Shown here: one piece after another, positions 1 through 17,536 of the stretch | Numbering within the stretch: the first letter of the stretch is position 1 | Layout: every line of letters starts with the position of its first letter | Source of the DNA: Paraglomus brasilianum | Lineage: Eukaryota | NCBI GenBank assembly: GCA_910592345.1 | Contig: CAJVPI010000360.1 | Location: 1-33,377 of the forward strand | DNA: 33,377 bases | Reading direction: 5' to 3' | Made by a program: the position numbers and the translations under genes | The notes under the pieces: generated by a model | What the model saw: only the letters and a program-made list of their open reading frames with translations | Databases searched by the model: none | What the model was told of the DNA's origin: nothing

Positions 1-1388
1 TTAAATTGATTCCACTTGAGATAACAGACGAGACACATGATTTATATTATGCCGAGGTAAACCATTTACTTATGCGTTATGTTATTGAATAGTATAGTTA
101 TTGAATAGTATAATTATTGACTTGTTATCTCCACTAGTTATGTGATGAGCATCCAGATATTCTTACCACAGATGTTTGGGTAACCATCGGATTCACATAT
201 GATGAAATTATGAAATTAAACAAGTGTATTGTCTCATAAAAGTTGACGATGGATTATGTTTGGCATGTACGGAACGATTAGAACCTAAGATAAATTTATT
301 TTGTTGCTGGTGTAAAGTACTAAGACATGTCGATTGGACTACTGGCAACAAGTCACTGGATTCATTTATTATGGAATCGTGGAGTAATATGAAGATTAAG
401 TATGATGCATATATACAATGGATAGAGTATTCCCTATTTACAGACGTACGAGAAATGATATCATTACGCTATGGATGCACACATATAGCAGAATATTTAG
501 AATTGACAACAAATGAATTAACACGTGTGACACTCAAAAAGATAGTTGATGAAGGGAATGATCAATTTTATCAGGTAAATTGTAAAATGCAAATAATAAT
601 AATATTGTTAACGTGTGTATCGCACATTTAACTGTATTTGTTTACTCAAATAGCTGACTAAGGAATACCCAGAGATATTAACACCCGAGAATATTTGGAT
701 AATTGGGATCACGCAGGAGCCATCTACTCGGGAATATTATTTAGTTTTCTATCATGATGTACATGCACTACTGGACAAGTTCATACAAATTAATGAAGAT
801 GTTAAGTATATTCAGTATAGCGACTTTTACGAACTCAAAGAGATCGGATCTGGTGGTTATGGAACAGTTTATACTGCTGAATATAAAAAGTATTCAGAAG
901 TATGGTCTATGCAAGAAACTGTTGTACTCAAACGGTTTAAGAGTTTTGATGAAATGCCAGAATTATTTATTTCTGAGGTAGGCAATCATTGGTAGTATTA
1001 ATTAAAGTGATATTTAATCTGACTCTGTATTATTTTATTTATTAGTTCAGAAATCATGCAAAGTGTGCAAGTGTAAGTGGTACTTATTTTCCATTCCTTA
1101 ATATTTATGGAGTGACACAAGACCCAGAAACAAAAGAGTACATGATTGTTATGCAACATGCTAACAATGGTAGTCTTTTGTCTTATTTGGATCAAAATAT
1201 TAACAAATTGACGTGGAAGATGAAATTACAGCATTTGAAGAGTATTGCACTTTATCTGCATGCTATCCATGATATGGGATTAGTGCATTGTGATCTTCAT
1301 GGCGGAAACATAGTTTTATATTATGATATGCCACGTATATGCGATTTTGGTCTCTCACGATCAGTGAATTCACGTCAGTCAAATTCTG

Positions 1389-1406
1389 CTCTCTCTCTCT
1401 CTCTCT
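1389..1406. repeat. (CT)9 microsatellite at the left junction of the insert
   Basis: CTCTCTCTCTCTCTCTCT; encodes the ERERE run on the minus strand. Confidence 0.95.
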
Positions 1407-1930
1407 GTTCTTAATTCTTGTAATGATAATTCATTCTTATTAGTTCTAGTTAAATAATTACTTATTTGCTCTTGTTGCTTTGGGGTTAAAGTGCTGTTAG
1501 TTGGATTATTGTCGTTAAACTCGATTACTAACTTATTATCTACCATTTTAACAAGACTGATATTAAATTGAGTAAATCAATTTTCCAATTGGTCTAATAA
1601 TTGAATGGTATTTGTTGGCTCATTTGGATTATTAGAAGGTTGGTTAGGTTGGTCGTTATTATTGGGTTGCTCTTCTCCTTCTTTCTTGTGTTCTTCATCT
1701 CCTCAATCGTTTTTCTGAAAAGAACAATTTGCTCCGTGTTCTTGGCATATTCCAGTAGTTTTAAACTCCATAAGAGGTTTGGTTCCAATTAATTTTTTAT
1801 TTTGGTCGTAATAACTCTTTTCAGAGCCTACGGGCGAAGGTTCAGAATGTTTACAATATTTCGCTTCATTCTTACATTTCAATTTCACTTTTTCTCATGG
1901 TTCGGCTTCTAGTTCTATTCAAGCATCTGA
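1391..1930 (-). other. Foreign DNA insert encoding an internal fragment of a genetic-code-4 (TGA=Trp) protein; probably from a Mollicutes-related endobacterium (MRE)
   Basis: Absent from the paralog. The minus frame reads SDA*IELEAEP*EKVKLKCK...QKND*GDEEHKKEGEEQPNNNDQPNQPSNNPNEPTNTIQLLDQLEN*FTQFNISLVKMVDNKLVIEFNDNNPTNSTLTPKQQEQISNYLTRTNKNELSLQELRTERERES. Every * is TGA (1919-21, 1895-97, 1703-05, 1577-79). There are no TAA, TAG or TGG codons and no intron is needed. Confidence 0.75.
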
Positions 1931-3569
1931 GGCGTTTATTCTTTATTGCACCAGAAGTCTTCGATACCTGCAAATTTACTCAGAGATCAGATGTATATTC
2001 TTTTGGTATCATTATGTATTTGATCGCTACTGGTGAACCACTATTTAGAGATAGGCAGTTCGATAGATATTTAGTATGCGATATTATGGGCGGACTACGA
2101 CCATCGATGCCCGATTCCGCACCAGAGGAATACAAGAAACTTGCCGAGCGGTGTTGTGATGCTGATCCTGATAAGCGTCCAAATATATGGACACTTGAGC
2201 GTGATATTAAGAAGCTTATTTATAAGGTGAAAAACGACAATTCTGACATATGGAATGCCGTTTATCATAATGATGTAAAACCGTTATCACGCCTCGAGAA
2301 GGAGAGTAAATATTCTAGTACACTCTTACCTGCGGGAGATCTACCTAAACCAAGAAATAGCTATGATATGGATTCAGCTGCAGGTATGAAGACAGGGATT
2401 GCATAAGTGCTGATATTGAACCAAGTCAGTTTACACACAGTATATTAATATTGTCACTATTTTCTAATTTAGTGACTCAAACATTTTAATGAAAACGGTT
2501 ATTTATAGCTTATACGAACCTATGTATGTCAATCTGAGTGGTGTCAATAGAGAGTAATTAGTGCACGACGTTGATGTGATTTGCGTGGCGTGGGTGTCGA
2601 TTTTAAACTAAAGGGCAAGTAGCAAATAGTTATCGTAAAGAGTTAATTTATTTTATAGATGTCATATAATACCTTTACAAAATTGTAGTGATTATATTTA
2701 TTGTAAATTATTCGTCGTAAACTATTAACCCGAACCTGGTTGTTTAACAGTTAACAAATAGCCTTACCCACGTCTTTGTAAGCATTGTTTGTGTACTAAA
2801 ATAGTATTGTATTCTTACTAACGGGTTTATTATGAGTTTTACGAAAGTCGCTTGACTCAAACTGCTAAAAAATAATTTGATGAGACTTGAAGTATTGGAC
2901 TCGATTTCGATAACGTATGTTAATGATTACTTGTATAATTACTAGCAAACATTATCGGTTAATGGTATTAGTATAAATAAAATTTAATTCTCAGCTAATG
3001 AATGCCTCTTGTGGTTTCTTTTCTGCCTCCTTCAGATTCTCCTGCGTACTGTTCAGCGCTTCAATTTTTTTTCGTTTTCGATAGAAAGATGTGCTGCGCG
3101 ATTAAAATATTATACTTCAGAATTCTATTTACTAATCGGAGAGAATTAACTTTATAGCAGAACCACTAACTAATAATGTTTATTCATTATGCGATAGATT
3201 TCCTCAATTACTGACAACTTAAATAACAATATCGAAGAATATTTATTTAACTGATTCAATCAGTATTATATCTGTGAGCTACGTCATTGGACAATTTATC
3301 ATCATACGCTCGAATGTTATCTTTTTGCTAATGTTGTGAATATAATTGCGCGAAAAGATGTGCGTTAAATTATTGGCCGTCGATTTATGATTATCGAACG
3401 CGACTTTGTTTGTTAGGTATAGATCTAATCATACGATTATTTGCAGGAATCATTGGATATTTAGCAGTTTACGGTTGATACTAAAGGTACGTACGTAGTC
3501 AATATGTGTGGATCTAATCGTACGATGATTTTGCATTGAAATTATTGGTACAGTTTTAGCATTATAGTT

Positions 3570-3640: not shown

Positions 3641-3929
3641 TGTTTGAATTTTGGATTCATGGTTTGCATTGAAATTATTGGCATTACGGTTGGACTTGTA
3701 AATATAGACTATTTTGATCTAACCGCATGGTGATTTGCATTGAAATTATTGGTACAAGTTTTAGCAATACGGTTAGCGTTGTTTACAACGCGGCGTTATA
3801 TACTATTCTATAAAAAGCTCGTGTGTTCTGTACATTTTGGCTAAGCCCCTGTTAAACTGGGGTAAGGAACTTTTTATTCACATGGCTATGCCAATCATCA
3901 ATTTTTTTGCTGCAACGTGCAGCAGATCT

Positions 3930-4099
3930 GCTCTCGATATAAGAAAGTGATCGGGGCCCAACAAATTCCTTTCTTATATCGAAAATCTCTTATATAACGG
4001 GAGTCATTTGTTACAAGACTTTAAATCGGGTCCAGCAAAAATACTTTCTTATATCAAAATTTTCTTATATCGAAGGGTTCTTATATCGAGAGCCACTTG
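3930..4099. mobile_element. Small MITE relic (Tc1/mariner-pogo-like), left end damaged
   Basis: 16-bp inverted repeat GCTCTCGATATAAGAA (3930-3945) / TTCTTATATCGAGAGC (4078-4093). Internal repeats of TTCTTATATC. The right end is followed by TA. Confidence 0.6.
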
Positions 4100-5982: not shown

Positions 5983-8541
5983 TTATTCTAATAGAGTTTG
6001 AGTCTCTAAATTATAAGAAATGAAGGGTGTTAACATTGTAAATTGACTTTTTTTTGTATCAACATATAACCATACCTGCAGCTGAATCCAAATCATAGCT
6101 GTTTAGGCAATTCTCTAGTAGGTAAGAGATTGCTAAAATATTTACTCTCCTTCTCTAGATGCGTACCTTGTTATGACAAATGATATTCCACATGTTGTCA
6201 TCTGAATTATCCGCGTTCACCTCGCCATAAAGCTTGTCAATATAATTAGCCAGTGCCCATCCATTTTCAAATCGCTTGTCAGGATCTGCATCACAACACT
6301 GCTCGGCAAGTTTCTTGTATTCATCTGGTGCAGAATCAGGCATTGATGGTCGTAGTCCACCCATAATGTCACATATTAAATCTCCATCAAACTGCCTATC
6401 TCTAAAAGGTGGTTCACCAGAGGCAATCAAATACATAATAATACCAAATGCATATATGTCTGATTTCTGAGTAAATTTGCGGGTATGGAAGACTTCTGGT
6501 GCAGTAGAGGATAAAGCACCTTGAATGGTTGAATTTGATTCATGCAAATTCACTGATCGTGAGAGACCAAGATTGCATATGTATGGTTCACTTACTTGGA
6601 ACACTTTTTCTGTTGCATCATTGCCATTCCCCCCATTCAGAACAATGTTTCTGCCATGAAGATCACAATGTACAAATCCTGCATCATGGATAGTATGCAG
6701 ATCATATGCAATAAAATGTAAACACTGTAATTTCATCATCCATGTCAATTTGTTAATATTTTGATCCAAATAAGACAAAAGATTACCATTGTCAGCATAT
6801 TGCATAACAATTATGTACTCTTTTGTTTCTGGGTTTTGTGTGAATCCATAAATTTGAAAGAAATCATCAGCCCCCATGCACTTGGCATGATTTCTGAACT
6901 ATTAAATAAAAATAAATACAGCATCAAATTAAATATCATTTTAATATTAAGATTAAAGGTTGCTTACCTCAGAAATAAATAATTCTGGCATTCCATCAAA
7001 ACTCTTAAACCATTTGAGTACAACTGCTTCTAAATATAAATAGTTTCTATATTTGGCTGTATAGACTGTTGCATAACATCCAGATCCAATTTCCTTAATT
7101 TCACTAAAGTCAGTATATGACATATACATGACACGTGAATTAGTTTGTACAAATTTGTCCAATGCTACATGCATGTGGTAAAACACTAAATAGTATTCAT
7201 GAGAAGATGGCTCTTGAGTGATCCCAGCTATCCAGATATTATCCTGAGTCAATATTTCAGGGTATTCCTTGGTTAGCTGTTTGAGTAAATAAATACAGTC
7301 ATTACAACAATAATCAATATTAAACACACTCAATTGCATATAATTTACCTGATGAAAATCAAATAATGGATCATTTTGTTTGTCAGCTATCTTTTTGAGT
7401 GTCACATGTGTCAATCCATCTGTTGTTGATCCTAACCAATTTGCTATATGAGTGCATCTATGGGGTAATGATGTCATCTCTTGTATGTTTAATAATTGAG
7501 AGTATTCAATCCAATGTATATACATTTCATCTATATTACTACTCCATGACTCCATAATAAATGAATTCAATGACTTGTTGCCTGTAGTCCAATTGAGAGG
7601 TCTTGGTGCTCTACAGTAATAACAGAATATACTTATGCTAGATTCAAACATTGCTGTACATGCCAGACATAATCCATCTGTATGGTTAACTTTTAGTAGA
7701 CAATACTTTTGTTTGCTTGTATCATATGTAAATCCAATGGTTATCAATACATTATTAGCTGGATGTTCATCACGTAACTAGTGGACATGTACATAATAGT
7801 TAGCAATTATTTAAGCAATTCAATAAACATGATAAATAAATGGTTTACCTTGTCATAATATAAATCATCTGTCTCATCAGTTATCTCAAGCGGAGTCATT
7901 AAACAATCATCATCAGTAATAAGTAGACCACGTAAGTATACATCAAATCCCCTATCAATAATGCAATTGGATGGAATCCATTCCAAATAGGCTTGATTTG
8001 CTGAGGTTGTTTGTAATTGAGATTTCTTAATAAACTCATCGAGTTGTTTATTGTTGCTAGTCCATCCATTGGATAATTGTTTATGTCCACAAATGCACCA
8101 CACGGGACTACATCGAAGTATTCCACATGCGGAGCAGAACCCATATTGAGAATAATAATTGTAAAAGAGTTCACCAGCAACCATGTAATAACTACCGTCA
8201 TACTCGGTAAATCCATAGATTTGTGCGTTGCGCCTTCCAAGCAATACGGAATGTCTTCTGAACTGATTAATATCATTGTTGTACTTGTGTGTTGGAAGTG
8301 AGTATATTCTGGCAAACTCACTCACAAATTTTGGTGTACATATTTCATCGCTTCCAAGCAACACCAACGTTATCGAATATGCTTGCTTGCGAATAGCGCA
8401 GTAGACGTTGTCAATTTGAGTTGGCTCTATGTCGATAATTTGCGAGCGAGGAATCCATTCAAGTTCATCTTCACTTTCCAAGGAGGATTGGACCAAGTTG
8501 TCAATTGCTGGATTATTAACAACCCCTGATGCTAACGACAT
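5983..8541 (-). pseudogene. TKL-type protein kinase copy B; probable pseudogene or pseudokinase
   Basis: ATG at 8541. Exons 8541-7849, 7777-7349, 7276-6968 and 6898-~6076; ancestral stop at 5983-5985. Same intron positions as copy A. DFG is changed to NLG, HGGN to HGRN and GGY to GCY. A 10-nt deletion causes a premature TAG at 6155-6157. Confidence 0.85.
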
Positions 8542-8587
8542 AGTTTGAATTAAAAAAATTTTATTTTTTTCAAGTGCGCAATGTCAC

Positions 8588-9831: not shown

Positions 9832-11085
9832 CTGCTGGTGAGTAATATTTTCCTTTATGCTTTCGTGTTCGTGGGAGCAATGGTGGGAAAATGGTTTGAA
9901 TGCTGTTGCATGCATAGAGTAATCTACTCACTGCTATTTCGTCATTATCATCATCATCCCTTTCGCCTCGCCAAGGTAAATATCACTGGTATTGTTTGTC
10001 ACTTTTCATGTATATCATCACATCCATATTTATCACTCGTTCCATTTATCCACCCTACCCTTCCTAACTGGAACAATCCTATTTCCTTATATGAATGGAT
10101 AAAGGCGCTTTCAATGCGCCAAATTGGCAGTATAGATTGAGTATGTTTTTTAGCTTTGTCGATTATCAATTATGTACTAGTTTTCTTTAGTTCCGAATAA
10201 TTGCCAATATTTTTCTTTCCTTTTTTATTTATTTAAAGCTCGTCGATACCTTTGGCAAGGACTTTGAACTTTATGAACGAGAAATCACTATTAAAACACT
10301 AATGGAATGGGGATCGTAATTTTAATGGAATCAAAAAGCGATTTAATACCAACAGCAGGAACAAGAATGAGCATGCTATCCCTGTCTTGGCTGGCGGACC
10401 TGGGACTGGAAAGAGTAGATTTCTTGATGAAATTCAGAACCTACTAAATGAATACGCTCATACTTCTAATGATCAAAAAGTCATCAATGCTTTCAAGAAT
10501 ATGATTGTTGTCAATGTTACGTACGGGAATGGAACCCCTGCTTCGAATGCGGATAAAATATTGGGCAGTGAAAGCATCACTTGCAATGCGCCTTCTTTTT
10601 GCGTACTTCCATCCTACATCCAATTTATCTCATTATGTCAGCAGGGCAGCCCAGACCCAGACTCTCCACTGCCATGCAGGTTATCCGGCAGCACGTATCC
10701 ATGAATCTTGATGATAGAGTCGCTCTGATTGTTGGCATCGATGAATTTAATAAGTTGCACGACATAGATCAGTCAACCTCGAGGAGCCTTATAACCAGTA
10801 TTGGAGGACAAATGTGTAAAGCGCCTAAAGGCTTTTTTTTTTGTTCCCATTGTTTCCAGTGCTATTGAAGGACTTATATATGTGTATCCACGGATTTTCC
10901 TCCCATTGCCCATCAAAATTAGCCGTGCAATCGTTTGCGATGATGATTACATTACTTACGACCATTATTTCTGGCGCTGCATTGGTGATATCAGAGGTCA
11001 CGTTAGGACATTGGAATTCTTTCTTGAGAAATTCTCGGAACCAAAGCTGCTGCTGAAGTTAAAGTCAAAAAATTATGTCATCTAA
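9832..11085 (+). pseudogene. Crinkler (CRN)-type P-loop NTPase pseudogene, 3' truncated
   Basis: Exon from 10239 (FELYERE). Walker A GGPGTGKS, VVNVTYGNGT, Walker B LIVGIDEFNK, and GDIRGHVRTLE. Frameshifts near 10302, 10572, ~10630 and ~10840. No C-terminal nuclease domain is visible. Confidence 0.8.
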
Positions 11086-13445: not shown

Positions 13446-14521
13446 TTTGTTCAATGGTGGTAATCAGTAATCAGTAATAATGGGGTTGTTGATAATAGAT
13501 AGCAAAGAGCTTTAAGATGGGAATAATCGCAGTTGTCCTTTATTTATAACTTTGAGGTAGTATTTGAGTTAATAATAAACTATAATTGATTTATTTATAC
13601 TGTACTTCTTTTTATTGGCGTTTTTCTTAATAATCTGACAAATTTACTGTTAGTGCGGACAATTTGTTGGTTATTTTTGGACAAAGCTATTTACTAATTG
13701 AGAAGTGAAGGAGTGAGCTTGATTCGAATTGTATGTCGTGCGCTTATGATTTGGCGAAGGATAGGCGTATAGAAAACGTTCTTGAACAATCGTTGCTTAC
13801 AAGATAACACGAATGTCACAATATAATTGCTGTAAATGGAGAGATAATTGGAAGCTAAAATTTAGCGTTAAATAACAAATTCAGTATGCAGTGGTTTTAC
13901 TGGTGATTCGTTTCGAAAGGTTTGCGCACACTATTTCCAAACAGTTAGTGTGCGCGGCAGACGCCGTTTATGAACAATTGACGCTTGGGAGATAGCACAC
14001 GGCTGCCATAAATGTGTTTCAAGCATAAAAACATTCGATAAAAAAAGGTTTGTTAAATTTTAATAATAAATTTGTTTTCTCAACAACAAAGCAAACTATC
14101 CGGTTAAACTTTTTTGCATTCAATAGCAGTTTGTTTACGCTTTCGTAAATGTGTGTATATTTATCATGTGGAACCGGTGTTTAAACAATTTTAAACTTTT
14201 AGGTCGTTTAGCTTTTTCGGTAACACAAAACGTTGGCTATATATAAATATTATCATATTACTAGCTGACACACTACAATTTTTGGTGAATATGTTGTACA
14301 TTAGATGCGCTAAATTCAGTATTAATTTTGCGGTGATTGCATTGCTCGTTACGTCAACATTCGCAAATGTAAGGGGTGGTCGGTGACTTTTGGTACATCA
14401 GGAGTACAGTGGACAATCTAATTTGATGCACGTCAATTGTTCCAGAACGTGATCTTTCCCATGATGCGTAGCAAGATATAAACGCGCGCAACTACATGTT
14501 CTTCATGATTTGACAAACATG

Positions 14522-17500
14522 ATGGACAACGTAGACCCTCAAGAATACGAAGAATTTGCGGCTGAATACAGAGTAAACAATCACGATGCTAAGGATGGGG
14601 AAATTATCCTAGCATACCTTGCACGGAAACAAAAACAGCAAGGTAAGTGAGCAAGCAATGGGGAGAAGAGTTTGAAAACTGTCACTGGCTTTGTGCTATA
14701 TTGCAAGAGAGGCAGTTGGGGCATTATTAGTTGGGGCAGAGCAGAGTCGTAGCAAAAGTTAAGTTATACATAAACTCGTTTGAAAGGCAAATAAGCAAAA
14801 TACGATATGTTTGGGTTAAGTAGAGTAGTGTCAGTTACCCACATCCATGGAGTGGTGTTGCACCTCTGTTTTCGAACTTCCAAAAATTATGCTACTTTCC
14901 TTGCTGTTATTTGTTTCTTGTAACTCACTCTTCTAACTACCCATTGCTACTTTTATTATTGCTATCTCGTTCATCTCTGTGTGCCATATCTTTCATAGAT
15001 GGTGAGTGACGTTTACCAATGCTACACCATCTGTTACATCTATTATTCATATTAATATACAAATCTTTTCTCTAATTTCTTTCGCCTTTGACCCTCTCAC
15101 AATTAGTATCAGTGCCTTTCAAAAGAAAACTGATGGATGATGAGTCATCGTCCAAACGACCAAAAACTGGCCTTGAACTATGGGACTATTGGTTTGACAC
15201 TCTTACTTCAACGGTGAACATTCATGCTCCCCCTAAACTCTATCCTGAGAGTGCACAAGAACTTGCTGGTCGCTTTCGCAAATCAGGGGTTTTCCTACCA
15301 TTTAGTGGTAAATCCTCTGTGGATATGCGTCTTGATGAACATCCTACCCCCATGGGCAAGAAGCTTGTCGAACTATTCCGGAAAACCAATAATTTCAACA
15401 TTCTCATCTCATTTTCTGGTGCTGGCAAGACTCGGGCCATATTTGATGTAGCCATGCAGAATAGAGGAGTCTTCTTAATGTATATTGAATGCAAGGTGGA
15501 GGTGGTAGGTGAACCAACCAGCAACCGTAATTTCGCGCAGCTCTACGAAGACATAGAGACAGTCGATGACACCACTGGGCTACAGAATAATGATGGTAAA
15601 GCAGAGGCACGCCGTCTTATTTCCTTGGAGTACACTTCCCGGATCTTCTACCTCATTCTGCTCATTAGAAAGATCAAGGACCTTACTCCACGCAGCTACC
15701 TACTCTCTCAGCTCAATGGCAGACAGGAGTCTATTGCAGAGATCAAATCATCACTAAAGATAGAAAGTAAAGGAAATTTGGATGAGCTTTTCCGAGTGGC
15801 CTCCCATAAGCTGTCGGTAAGGTTCTTTGTTGAATTACTATTACCAAAACAGTTATCTTTTTTATTCTGGACATTTAATAACAAATTTTATTTTATGTAT
15901 GATAGGATATTTTGCCCCCTGGATCTCAGTTGGCTATTGCAATTGACGAGGCCAGTACTGCCAGCAAACTTTTTTACCCAAAATTCCATAATATCCATGG
16001 TAACCCACGTGGCTTGCTAATGCCGATGTTAGAATTTCTCATTCCATCACGTAAGATTCCTGTAGTGATTGCTGGCACTTCATTTACACTTAAACATGGG
16101 GATAAAGTTGAGAGTGATGTTGGCAAAACTACAAATGAGAATGTTATTATGGACTTTGAGACACTGACAATTGATAAAGTCAAAGCCTATATCAAACATT
16201 ATCTCAACCTCTCAGGCTGTGATATCGGAAGAATTGAAGACTGGAAATACCTTGCTGGTCGCCCCCACTTAGCTGCTCGGTTGTTATGTGAAATTGTACA
16301 GGGGGAGAATCGTGAGCAAAATGAAACAAAACAGACTGTGTTAGAAAGGGCTATTAAGGAGACAGTAAATGTCATCAGCAAACGTTTGACAGAAGGTCTT
16401 TCTTTTCTAACTAAAGATGTAATTGGTAAAAGGGACCCTCTTGCCCTTATTCTCCAAAATATCTTGGAAAATGTCTTTATTTCTTGCCAGTATGCATTTC
16501 ACACAATTATAAATTTTCTTTTTAGCAAAAACCATGAATAGTTGGCTAACAAATTGTAATATCCAGCTTCTTCTCTGGCATTGGCCATGTAACTGATTAT
16601 GACGATAAATCGACACGCCTTGTTGAATGTGGGATTACTTCTTTGAGGCAGACACAAAGTGTACGTTATATTCAAGTCAATGAACCTTTGGCAATAAGGG
16701 TTGTCAACACTGTGCTTGGTATCGAGTTCAAAAGTCCAGCTACAACACTCACCAATAGACTATTTGCAAAGTTAAATGAACGTGCCAATGCTTCAGACAC
16801 GTCAAAAGGCAAAGCATGGGAATATCTTATCCTGGCACAAATGCTGACTTACAATGGCAAGAAAGTCGTCGACTTAATCAAACTGTTTTACAATGATCAT
16901 CAAATATTGCAGGAAAAGCTACACCGAAAACCAAATGGAGATTCTCTTAAGGTCACTGAACTACCAAAATGGACATATACTGCAACCTTCAATGTGGAGT
17001 CCTATGGAGATGTAGAAATGCTCTCCCTGCTGTGCAACAAGTCGTATGAAGATGGTGTGGATGTCATCAGTGACTGGCTTGCATCTCCAGAGAATCGAAA
17101 GTATATTCTTCAACCTGAAAATGCAATGCGCCCAGATGGACTATACATTGGTCACATTGATGGCCACCATAGTCATTATTGGACCCTGCTATTCAGTGCA
17201 AAGTTCTACAGCAATGCAATGTCAGGCCAAGAGATCAATCAGGATAAAAATTCTACAAATTGGAGCTTGGCTTATTATACTAAGGATCTTAGAAAAGCAC
17301 CTAATTGTCATTTGATTGACAAGCTTGCAGAAGCACGACGACTTTATAAGCATCATGGCTCTCTCCGCATTCATTTTATAATGCCAGGCTTGGCTTCATG
17401 CAGTGATGGGTCAGATAGAGGAGGTTGTCGAGTGGAGGACAATGATGTTATCATGTATATTGATAGAACCATGTTGGGAAAGTTGTTCCAATCCTCTCCT

Positions 17501-17536
17501 GATATTGCAGAATCTATAGAAGTCCTTTTGGAGTAA
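14522..17536 (+). CDS. Intact Crinkler-type (CR-NTPase + restriction-endonuclease-fold) protein, ~795 aa
   Basis: Exons 14522-14642, 14999-15001, 15107-15816, 15906-16489 and 16567-17536 splice (GT-AG) into one 2388-nt frame. Contains a basic NLS-like stretch (KRK..KRPK), Walker A SFSGAGKT, Walker B AIAIDEA, the motif YLAGRPH, and C-terminal GKAWE..PENAMRPDG..LLFSAKFY. Confidence 0.8.

Follow-up and report, generated by a model that had tools for sequence, protein, structure and literature searches.

How a reading frame that uses TGA for tryptophan came to lie within a fungal kinase exon is the question raised by the window, by which we mean the whole 33,377-nucleotide stretch analysed here (Paraglomus brasilianum, contig CAJVPI010000360.1). 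The window is nuclear eukaryotic DNA that carries split kinase, Ras and AMP-binding genes. A preliminary description had claimed that about 540 bp on the minus strand within one of these kinases form a code-4 frame with TGA as Trp, and both the translation and the homologues found here bear this out. The explanation that we favour, at a probability of roughly 0.78, is that a 530-bp fragment of an endobacterial genome with TGA=Trp was likely end-joined into the nuclear kinase exon at a chromosome break, where it would now be inert.

The interrupted gene, kinase A, lies on the plus strand. The N-terminal part of the affected exon occupies 1046..1386, following a putative GT-AG intron at 978-1045, and the C-terminal part of the same exon runs over 1917..2383, its predicted end lying at a GT site; both parts match Pfam PK_Tyr_Ser-Thr (E 3.5e-15 and 6.3e-14, respectively). 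A second kinase, paralog B, has a minus-strand exon at 6155..6898 that is uninterrupted at the corresponding site and was used as a stand-in for the empty site. Its alignment with kinase A gives 83-86% DNA identity right up to both junctions and directly identifies the flanks as host nuclear DNA, colinear across the insertion site. In sequencing run X1, 1,895 contigs align to the window, nearly all of them, by depth, on kinase exons, and a very large family of kinase paralogs would fit Glomeromycotina. Paralog B (6155-8583) has its DFG motif replaced by CNLG and the usual motif preceding APE by ALSST, and to judge from these replacements it may be catalytically dead.

Translated with table 4 from 1930 to 1388 on the minus strand, the frame comprises 181 codons, with TGA occurring four times and TAA, TAG and TGG not at all. 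Dinucleotide shuffling of 1388-1915 produced any frame without TAA or TAG in 19 of 20,000 cases. The scan for other TGA-only frames that had been proposed earlier was run within the window, which holds 84 code-4 frames; six others reach at least 175 codons with at least four TGA and neither TAA nor TAG, so that such a frame is by itself weak evidence. At 14191-14763, both strands are open under table 4 for 185-190 codons, with four TGA per strand. Long TGA-only frames are thus not rare in the window, and the case for a coding frame rests on homology. When 16 proteins of the donor family were compared with the window, their matches were confined to 1385-1939 except for a weak one (E 0.002) at 3874-3984, and the frames at 14191-14763 gave none.

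This family emerged from a search with the table-4 translation of 1930 to 1388, as the preliminary description had suggested. The best relative, P0002 (E 3e-42), covers 93% of the query at 50% identity (three of the 32 candidates were relatives). A full-library protein search yielded 15 matches, 13 of which were judged to belong to the family; P0014 and P0017 were discarded by eye as unrelated repeat proteins, and the family alignment (A4) omits P0003, which is part of P0005, as well as the short P0016. One of 81 candidate metagenome stretches also matched. This locus, L001, is 53% identical across the insert and holds a complete gene of 319 amino acids whose frame is open only with three TGA read as Trp; it consists of two divergent genes about 70 bp apart, and the neighbour too reads through one TGA. 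The dN/dS ratio between the insert and L001 is 0.22 over 92 gap-free codons. Because of its homology to these relatives, and not because of its openness, the insert is judged from the sequences to be a real piece of a protein-coding gene from a TGA=Trp genome, with the 5' end missing. The foreign piece (1387..1916, minus strand) is the 3' part of that gene, corresponding to about residues 105-303 of the 319-aa relative; it has no start codon of its own, and its end bases, 1387 and 1916, are attributable to either donor or host.

The code of the fragment can be read directly from its TGA codons, all on the minus strand. Opposite 1895..1897, Trp is found in eight of nine aligned relatives; opposite 1703..1705, eight of 12 have Trp and three have Tyr; and opposite 1577..1579, 13 of 15 have an aromatic residue, two pairs of aligned rows in these counts being cluster mates. 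At the same positions L001 has TGA, TGA and TGG, respectively. Code-4 gene calling may account for the W in several relatives; neither the TGA/TGG swap nor the Y/F columns depend on such calling. Three of the four TGA codons thus retain the Trp reading, but the fourth, at 1919-1921, which the preliminary description had already suspected of falling in the junction, does not: W occurs in none of nine aligned relatives at its column, and since host DNA restarts at 1917, this codon is host sequence.

The borders of the insert can likewise be placed directly, to within a few bases. Homology to the donor family stops at 1915, and kinase DNA aligned to paralog B stops at 1386 and restarts at 1917. 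The insert thus exists, but the span of 1391-1930 first given to it must be revised, its borders now lying at about 1387/1388 and 1915/1916. The last host bases on the left, ATTC (1383..1386, plus strand), are repeated at 1917-1920 and may represent a 4-bp target duplication. Where host DNA resumes (1917..1931, plus strand), the host sequence has an 8-base period, as a consequence of which two readings of the right junction both fit. In the favoured reading, ATTC would have been duplicated (1383-1386 and 1917-1920) and the host would continue in register, with an in-frame TGA at 1928-1930 and four mismatches to paralog B in the 15 positions of 1917..1931; it is moderately preferred as it requires no further indel. 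Among the loose ends listed for run X2, a paralog has CGA at the 1928-1930 codon, one step from TGA. In the other reading, four host bases would have been lost, and seven exact matches would be followed by eight extra bases at 1924-1931. Since the contigs showed no empty allele at this site, the junction reading is ambiguous. Templated filler was also considered for 1924-1931, where a 7-mer has its reverse complement at 1987, yet this is found at five other window sites too, and the idea was set aside as weak. Neither inverted nor direct repeats connect the insert ends, and the insert has no terminal repeats, no coding for transposase or reverse transcriptase, and no Pfam match. Little host DNA lost and no element ends together fit end-joining at a break.

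Both junctions are also directly present in assembled contigs, as opposed to raw reads, from three sequencing runs of one sample (X1-X3), which is possibly the window's own source. The contigs from X1 (1344-1983) and X2 (1357-1983) cross both junctions with no differences, and that from X3 (1417-1993, one difference) crosses the right junction and ends at the repeat. The earlier argument that resumption of the host gene at the same point favours integration is thereby strengthened, with both junctions spanned in two of the three runs and the right junction in the third. As X1-X3 may be the source of the window, they argue against a mis-join yet are not independent of it. The insert contigs extend just 30-77 host bases past the junctions, and linkage over longer distances, through the large paralog family, comes from the window's assembly alone. 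In each run, the depth over 1488-1931 equals that of the single covering contig, which indicates that the run contigs hold no second copy of 85% or greater likeness in another context. Had the library contained a symbiont genome with this sequence, such a copy would be expected, and no donor-context copy appeared in any run. The depth comparison that had been proposed thus gives a single context in each run, but the insert is far deeper than 2672-2800, with contig depths (which are no copy number) of 458, 67 and 325 in X1-X3 against 12, 0 and 25 or less. The excess depth at 1414-1931 could mean that amplification was uneven, that the locus is present more than once, or that the assembly is a mosaic of paralogs. 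In X11, a different sample labelled as the same organism, 1562-1931 is uncovered; this gap was not counted as an empty allele, since X11 has no long exact piece that would place the locus in that run. In four soil metagenomes from one study, 0.43-0.46 of the words of 1100-2300 are present, about the insert's share, and this overlap was not used as evidence. Overall, the fragment is probably integrated in the fungal chromosome.

The donor is, with good probability, a Mollicutes-related endobacterium, as had been proposed from the code. TGA=Trp and the insert GC of 0.33 both agree with a Ca. Moeniiplasma donor: such endobacteria are annotated with the Mycoplasma code according to the available text of PMC10507103, and their GC is given as 29-33% in that of PMC11423566, a range that discriminates weakly as the host DNA is similar. 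Relatives of the insert are nearly all metagenome proteins, the only one with an organism name being CAG8441292.1, a gene model in an assembly of Scutellospora calospora, where it sits on a contig of 19 kb. For an assembly of this species, the PMC11423566 supplement gives 18 contigs as endobacterial, and the contig of CAG8441292.1 may be one of them. The model lacks the stretch carrying two conserved Trp columns, which a eukaryotic gene caller skipping TGA might have produced. Weighing on the other side, two sets of candidate stretches from the collection genome_contigs, 53 and 312 in number, contained no family member, and because no named endobacterial or prokaryote genome matched, the donor is called only probable. 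No relative appeared among the candidates from viral_contigs (0 of 117, 17, 6 and 10; a DNA pattern also gave 0) or in the plasmid and phage collections. Of a mitochondrial origin, which would make the insert a NUMT, there is likewise no sign in Pfam, nor is any mitochondrial gene, intron ORF or mitovirus family found among the members of A4.

Members of the family combine Cys-bearing N-terminal parts, an N/Q/P linker and a small alpha/beta domain, and often (9 of 18 members) they end in a hydrophobic tail. A structure model reached pLDDT 71 (70-90 by block in the alpha/beta domain) and pTM 0.40, and had no match in the PDB at E 0.001 or better. Pfam, NCBIfam and PHROGs returned nothing for the insert and its closest relatives except weak tail matches, and the Atlas gave no usable match for P0002.

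Several other histories could give rise to a code-4 frame in a kinase exon. The insertion might be truly nuclear and yet come from another TGA=Trp donor, such as a different mollicute or a mitochondrial plasmid or element; mould mitochondria use table 4 as well, as the name of that table states, and the metagenomic character of the relatives and the absence of the family from named endobacterial genomes in the collections searched speak for it. We nevertheless consider it improbable, given the many divergent family members, half of them with the hydrophobic tail, the lack of any Pfam, NCBIfam, phage or plasmid match to the insert, the pair of divergent genes at L001, and the origin of the sole named relative in the assembly of a mycorrhizal fungus. 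A little less probable still is a join of symbiont and host DNA made in the laboratory, during whole-genome amplification or library making. Two template switches would be required, the second of which landed back in the original kinase no more than about 4 bases from the first, and the same junctions recur in two to three runs with a donor-context copy in none; these points outweigh the derivation of all junction support from one sample, the uneven depth, which suggests amplified low-input DNA, and the missing cover in X11, where the locus could not in any case be placed.

Entry as RNA deserves mention because the insert resembles retroposed copies in being truncated 5', in carrying a simple repeat at its sense 3' end and in its possible short target duplication, as if a host retroelement had reverse-transcribed a symbiont transcript ending at (AG)n into the kinase. 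However, there is no poly(A) tail, the relatives' gene runs on past the repeat, which is hence not a transcript end, and a staggered break equally predicts the 4-bp duplication, leaving this route very unlikely. The faintest of the alternatives holds that an interrupted kinase resides in the symbiont genome and was mis-assembled into a nuclear paralog. Host-derived kinases are indeed reported in these bacteria in the available part of PMC10507103, and the run contigs confirm short flanks only, at a depth unlike that of the far flank; yet the flanks share 83-86% DNA identity with a nuclear paralog that has introns and belong to the host's large paralog family, and we give this scenario hardly any weight.

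Under the endobacterial end-joining explanation, a Mollicutes-related endobacterium in the fungal cytoplasm would be the likely source of the DNA, which likely broke at its own (AG)n repeat. The ATTC duplication of 4 bp, microhomology of at most 1 bp and the lack of element ends suggest that the fragment was pasted into a staggered chromosome break via end-joining, the usual path by which Wolbachia nuclear inserts and NUMTs enter chromosomes. Being antisense to the host gene, without a start codon and with three TGA that are stops in the host code, the inserted fragment would be inert DNA.

The repeat in question is (AG)9 at 1389..1406 on the minus strand, or (CT)9 on the plus strand. It codes for ERERE and is the window's sole AG/CT tract of five or more units, and the left junction lies 1-2 bases past it. 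An ERERE-coding tract is found at the same position in P0002, P0004, P0005, P0006 and P0009, and the tails beyond it differ. According to the accessible part of PMC4916391, simple repeats, whose unit is not given there, mark synteny or rearrangement breaks in these endobacteria. That the break fell so near the sole tract of a gene of about 950 bp is unlikely to be chance, although this was noticed post hoc and in a single case. In a speculative and rather improbable extension, fungal endobacteria would break at their (AG)n repeats and repeatedly shed DNA into host nuclei from there; mycorrhizal genomes would then preserve a code-marked, searchable fossil record of infections both present and lost, and symbiont DNA would contribute to the inactivation of kinases in the expanded family.

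Two further claims of the preliminary description do not stand as made. The insertion was said to have acted as a mutagen, yet kinase A carries other lesions: an 8-bp tandem duplication in an upstream exon (203..218, plus strand), across which the matches of paralog B change frame, a 1-bp deletion relative to paralog B near 1936, and, in the favoured junction reading, the TGA at 1928-1930. The order of these events cannot be told, and inactivation by the insert is therefore unproven. The insertion was also called recent because its frame is unbroken. In simulations with substitutions only, a 10% substitution level left the frame without TAA and TAG in 15% of the trials, and a 15% level did so in 6%, so that an open frame tolerates about 15% drift and sets only a loose bound; "recent" here means merely "not heavily decayed". 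CpG content gave no date for the insert.

Transfer from endobacterium to fungus is itself already known, having been reported in 2019 for Diversispora epigaea (review PMC8227670, as far as its available text goes). Those cases share the direction and likely the partners of the present one, but as described there they concern whole genes (RNase III, endonucleases and a methyltransferase) proposed to be useful, whereas the insert is truncated, keeps the donor code, lies in a host exon and has both junctions readable. Nuclear copies of Wolbachia DNA (PMC2882956) and NUMTs are likewise non-functional endosymbiont or organelle DNA in chromosomes; here, by comparison, the host is a fungus, the donor probably a mollicute, and the code mark gives the direction without a tree. 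Endobacterial contigs contaminate Mucoromycota assemblies according to the accessible text of PMC11423566, again placing endobacterial-type sequence in a fungal assembly, but as separate contigs and not as 530 bp between colinear halves of one host exon. The available portion of a Rhizophagus irregularis survey (PMC5982333) names bacterial donors other than the known endobacteria, and the accessible parts of PMC7732545, PMC13315312, PMC12306442 and bioRxiv 10.1101/2021.09.13.460061 hold nothing on nuclear fragments. In the full-text literature covered, which was largely open-access, we found no junction-resolved donor-code fragment in a fungal exon. What is apparently new, therefore, is a raw, nuwt-like fragment with resolved junctions and the donor code kept.

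Symbiont contigs are so frequent in such assemblies that a claimed transfer from endobacterium to fungus is hard to separate from contamination. Here the retained donor code and the split host exon allow direction and junctions to be read directly. If the favoured explanation is true, symbiont DNA enters the fungal nucleus as raw material, a step that necessarily precedes any useful gene transfer, although the inserted piece itself is probably junk. The case offers a genome-wide screen, for TGA-for-Trp frames of endobacterial families within host DNA, and the insert is a potential PCR marker for nuclei or isolates.

Some minor observations concern the rest of the window and the repeat. A short P-loop ORF lies at 10303-10704, with weak AAA-type Pfam matches below the cut-off. 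On the plus strand at 15076-17536, ORFs of 314, 211 and 328 aa follow one another with partial overlap; they lack a clear Pfam match and are probably one split or frameshifted gene. In L001, the stretch past (AG)n (1090-1199) ends, in its own frame, in a short hydrophilic tail, and an alternative frame encodes a hydrophobic anchor resembling those of P0013 and P0019. Among the tract-bearing relatives, the anchor is present in P0006 and absent from P0002, P0004, P0005 and P0009, and the window copy of the tract is in the ...ERES frame. This pattern suggests that, in the donor family, slippage at the repeat may determine whether the protein carries a membrane anchor.
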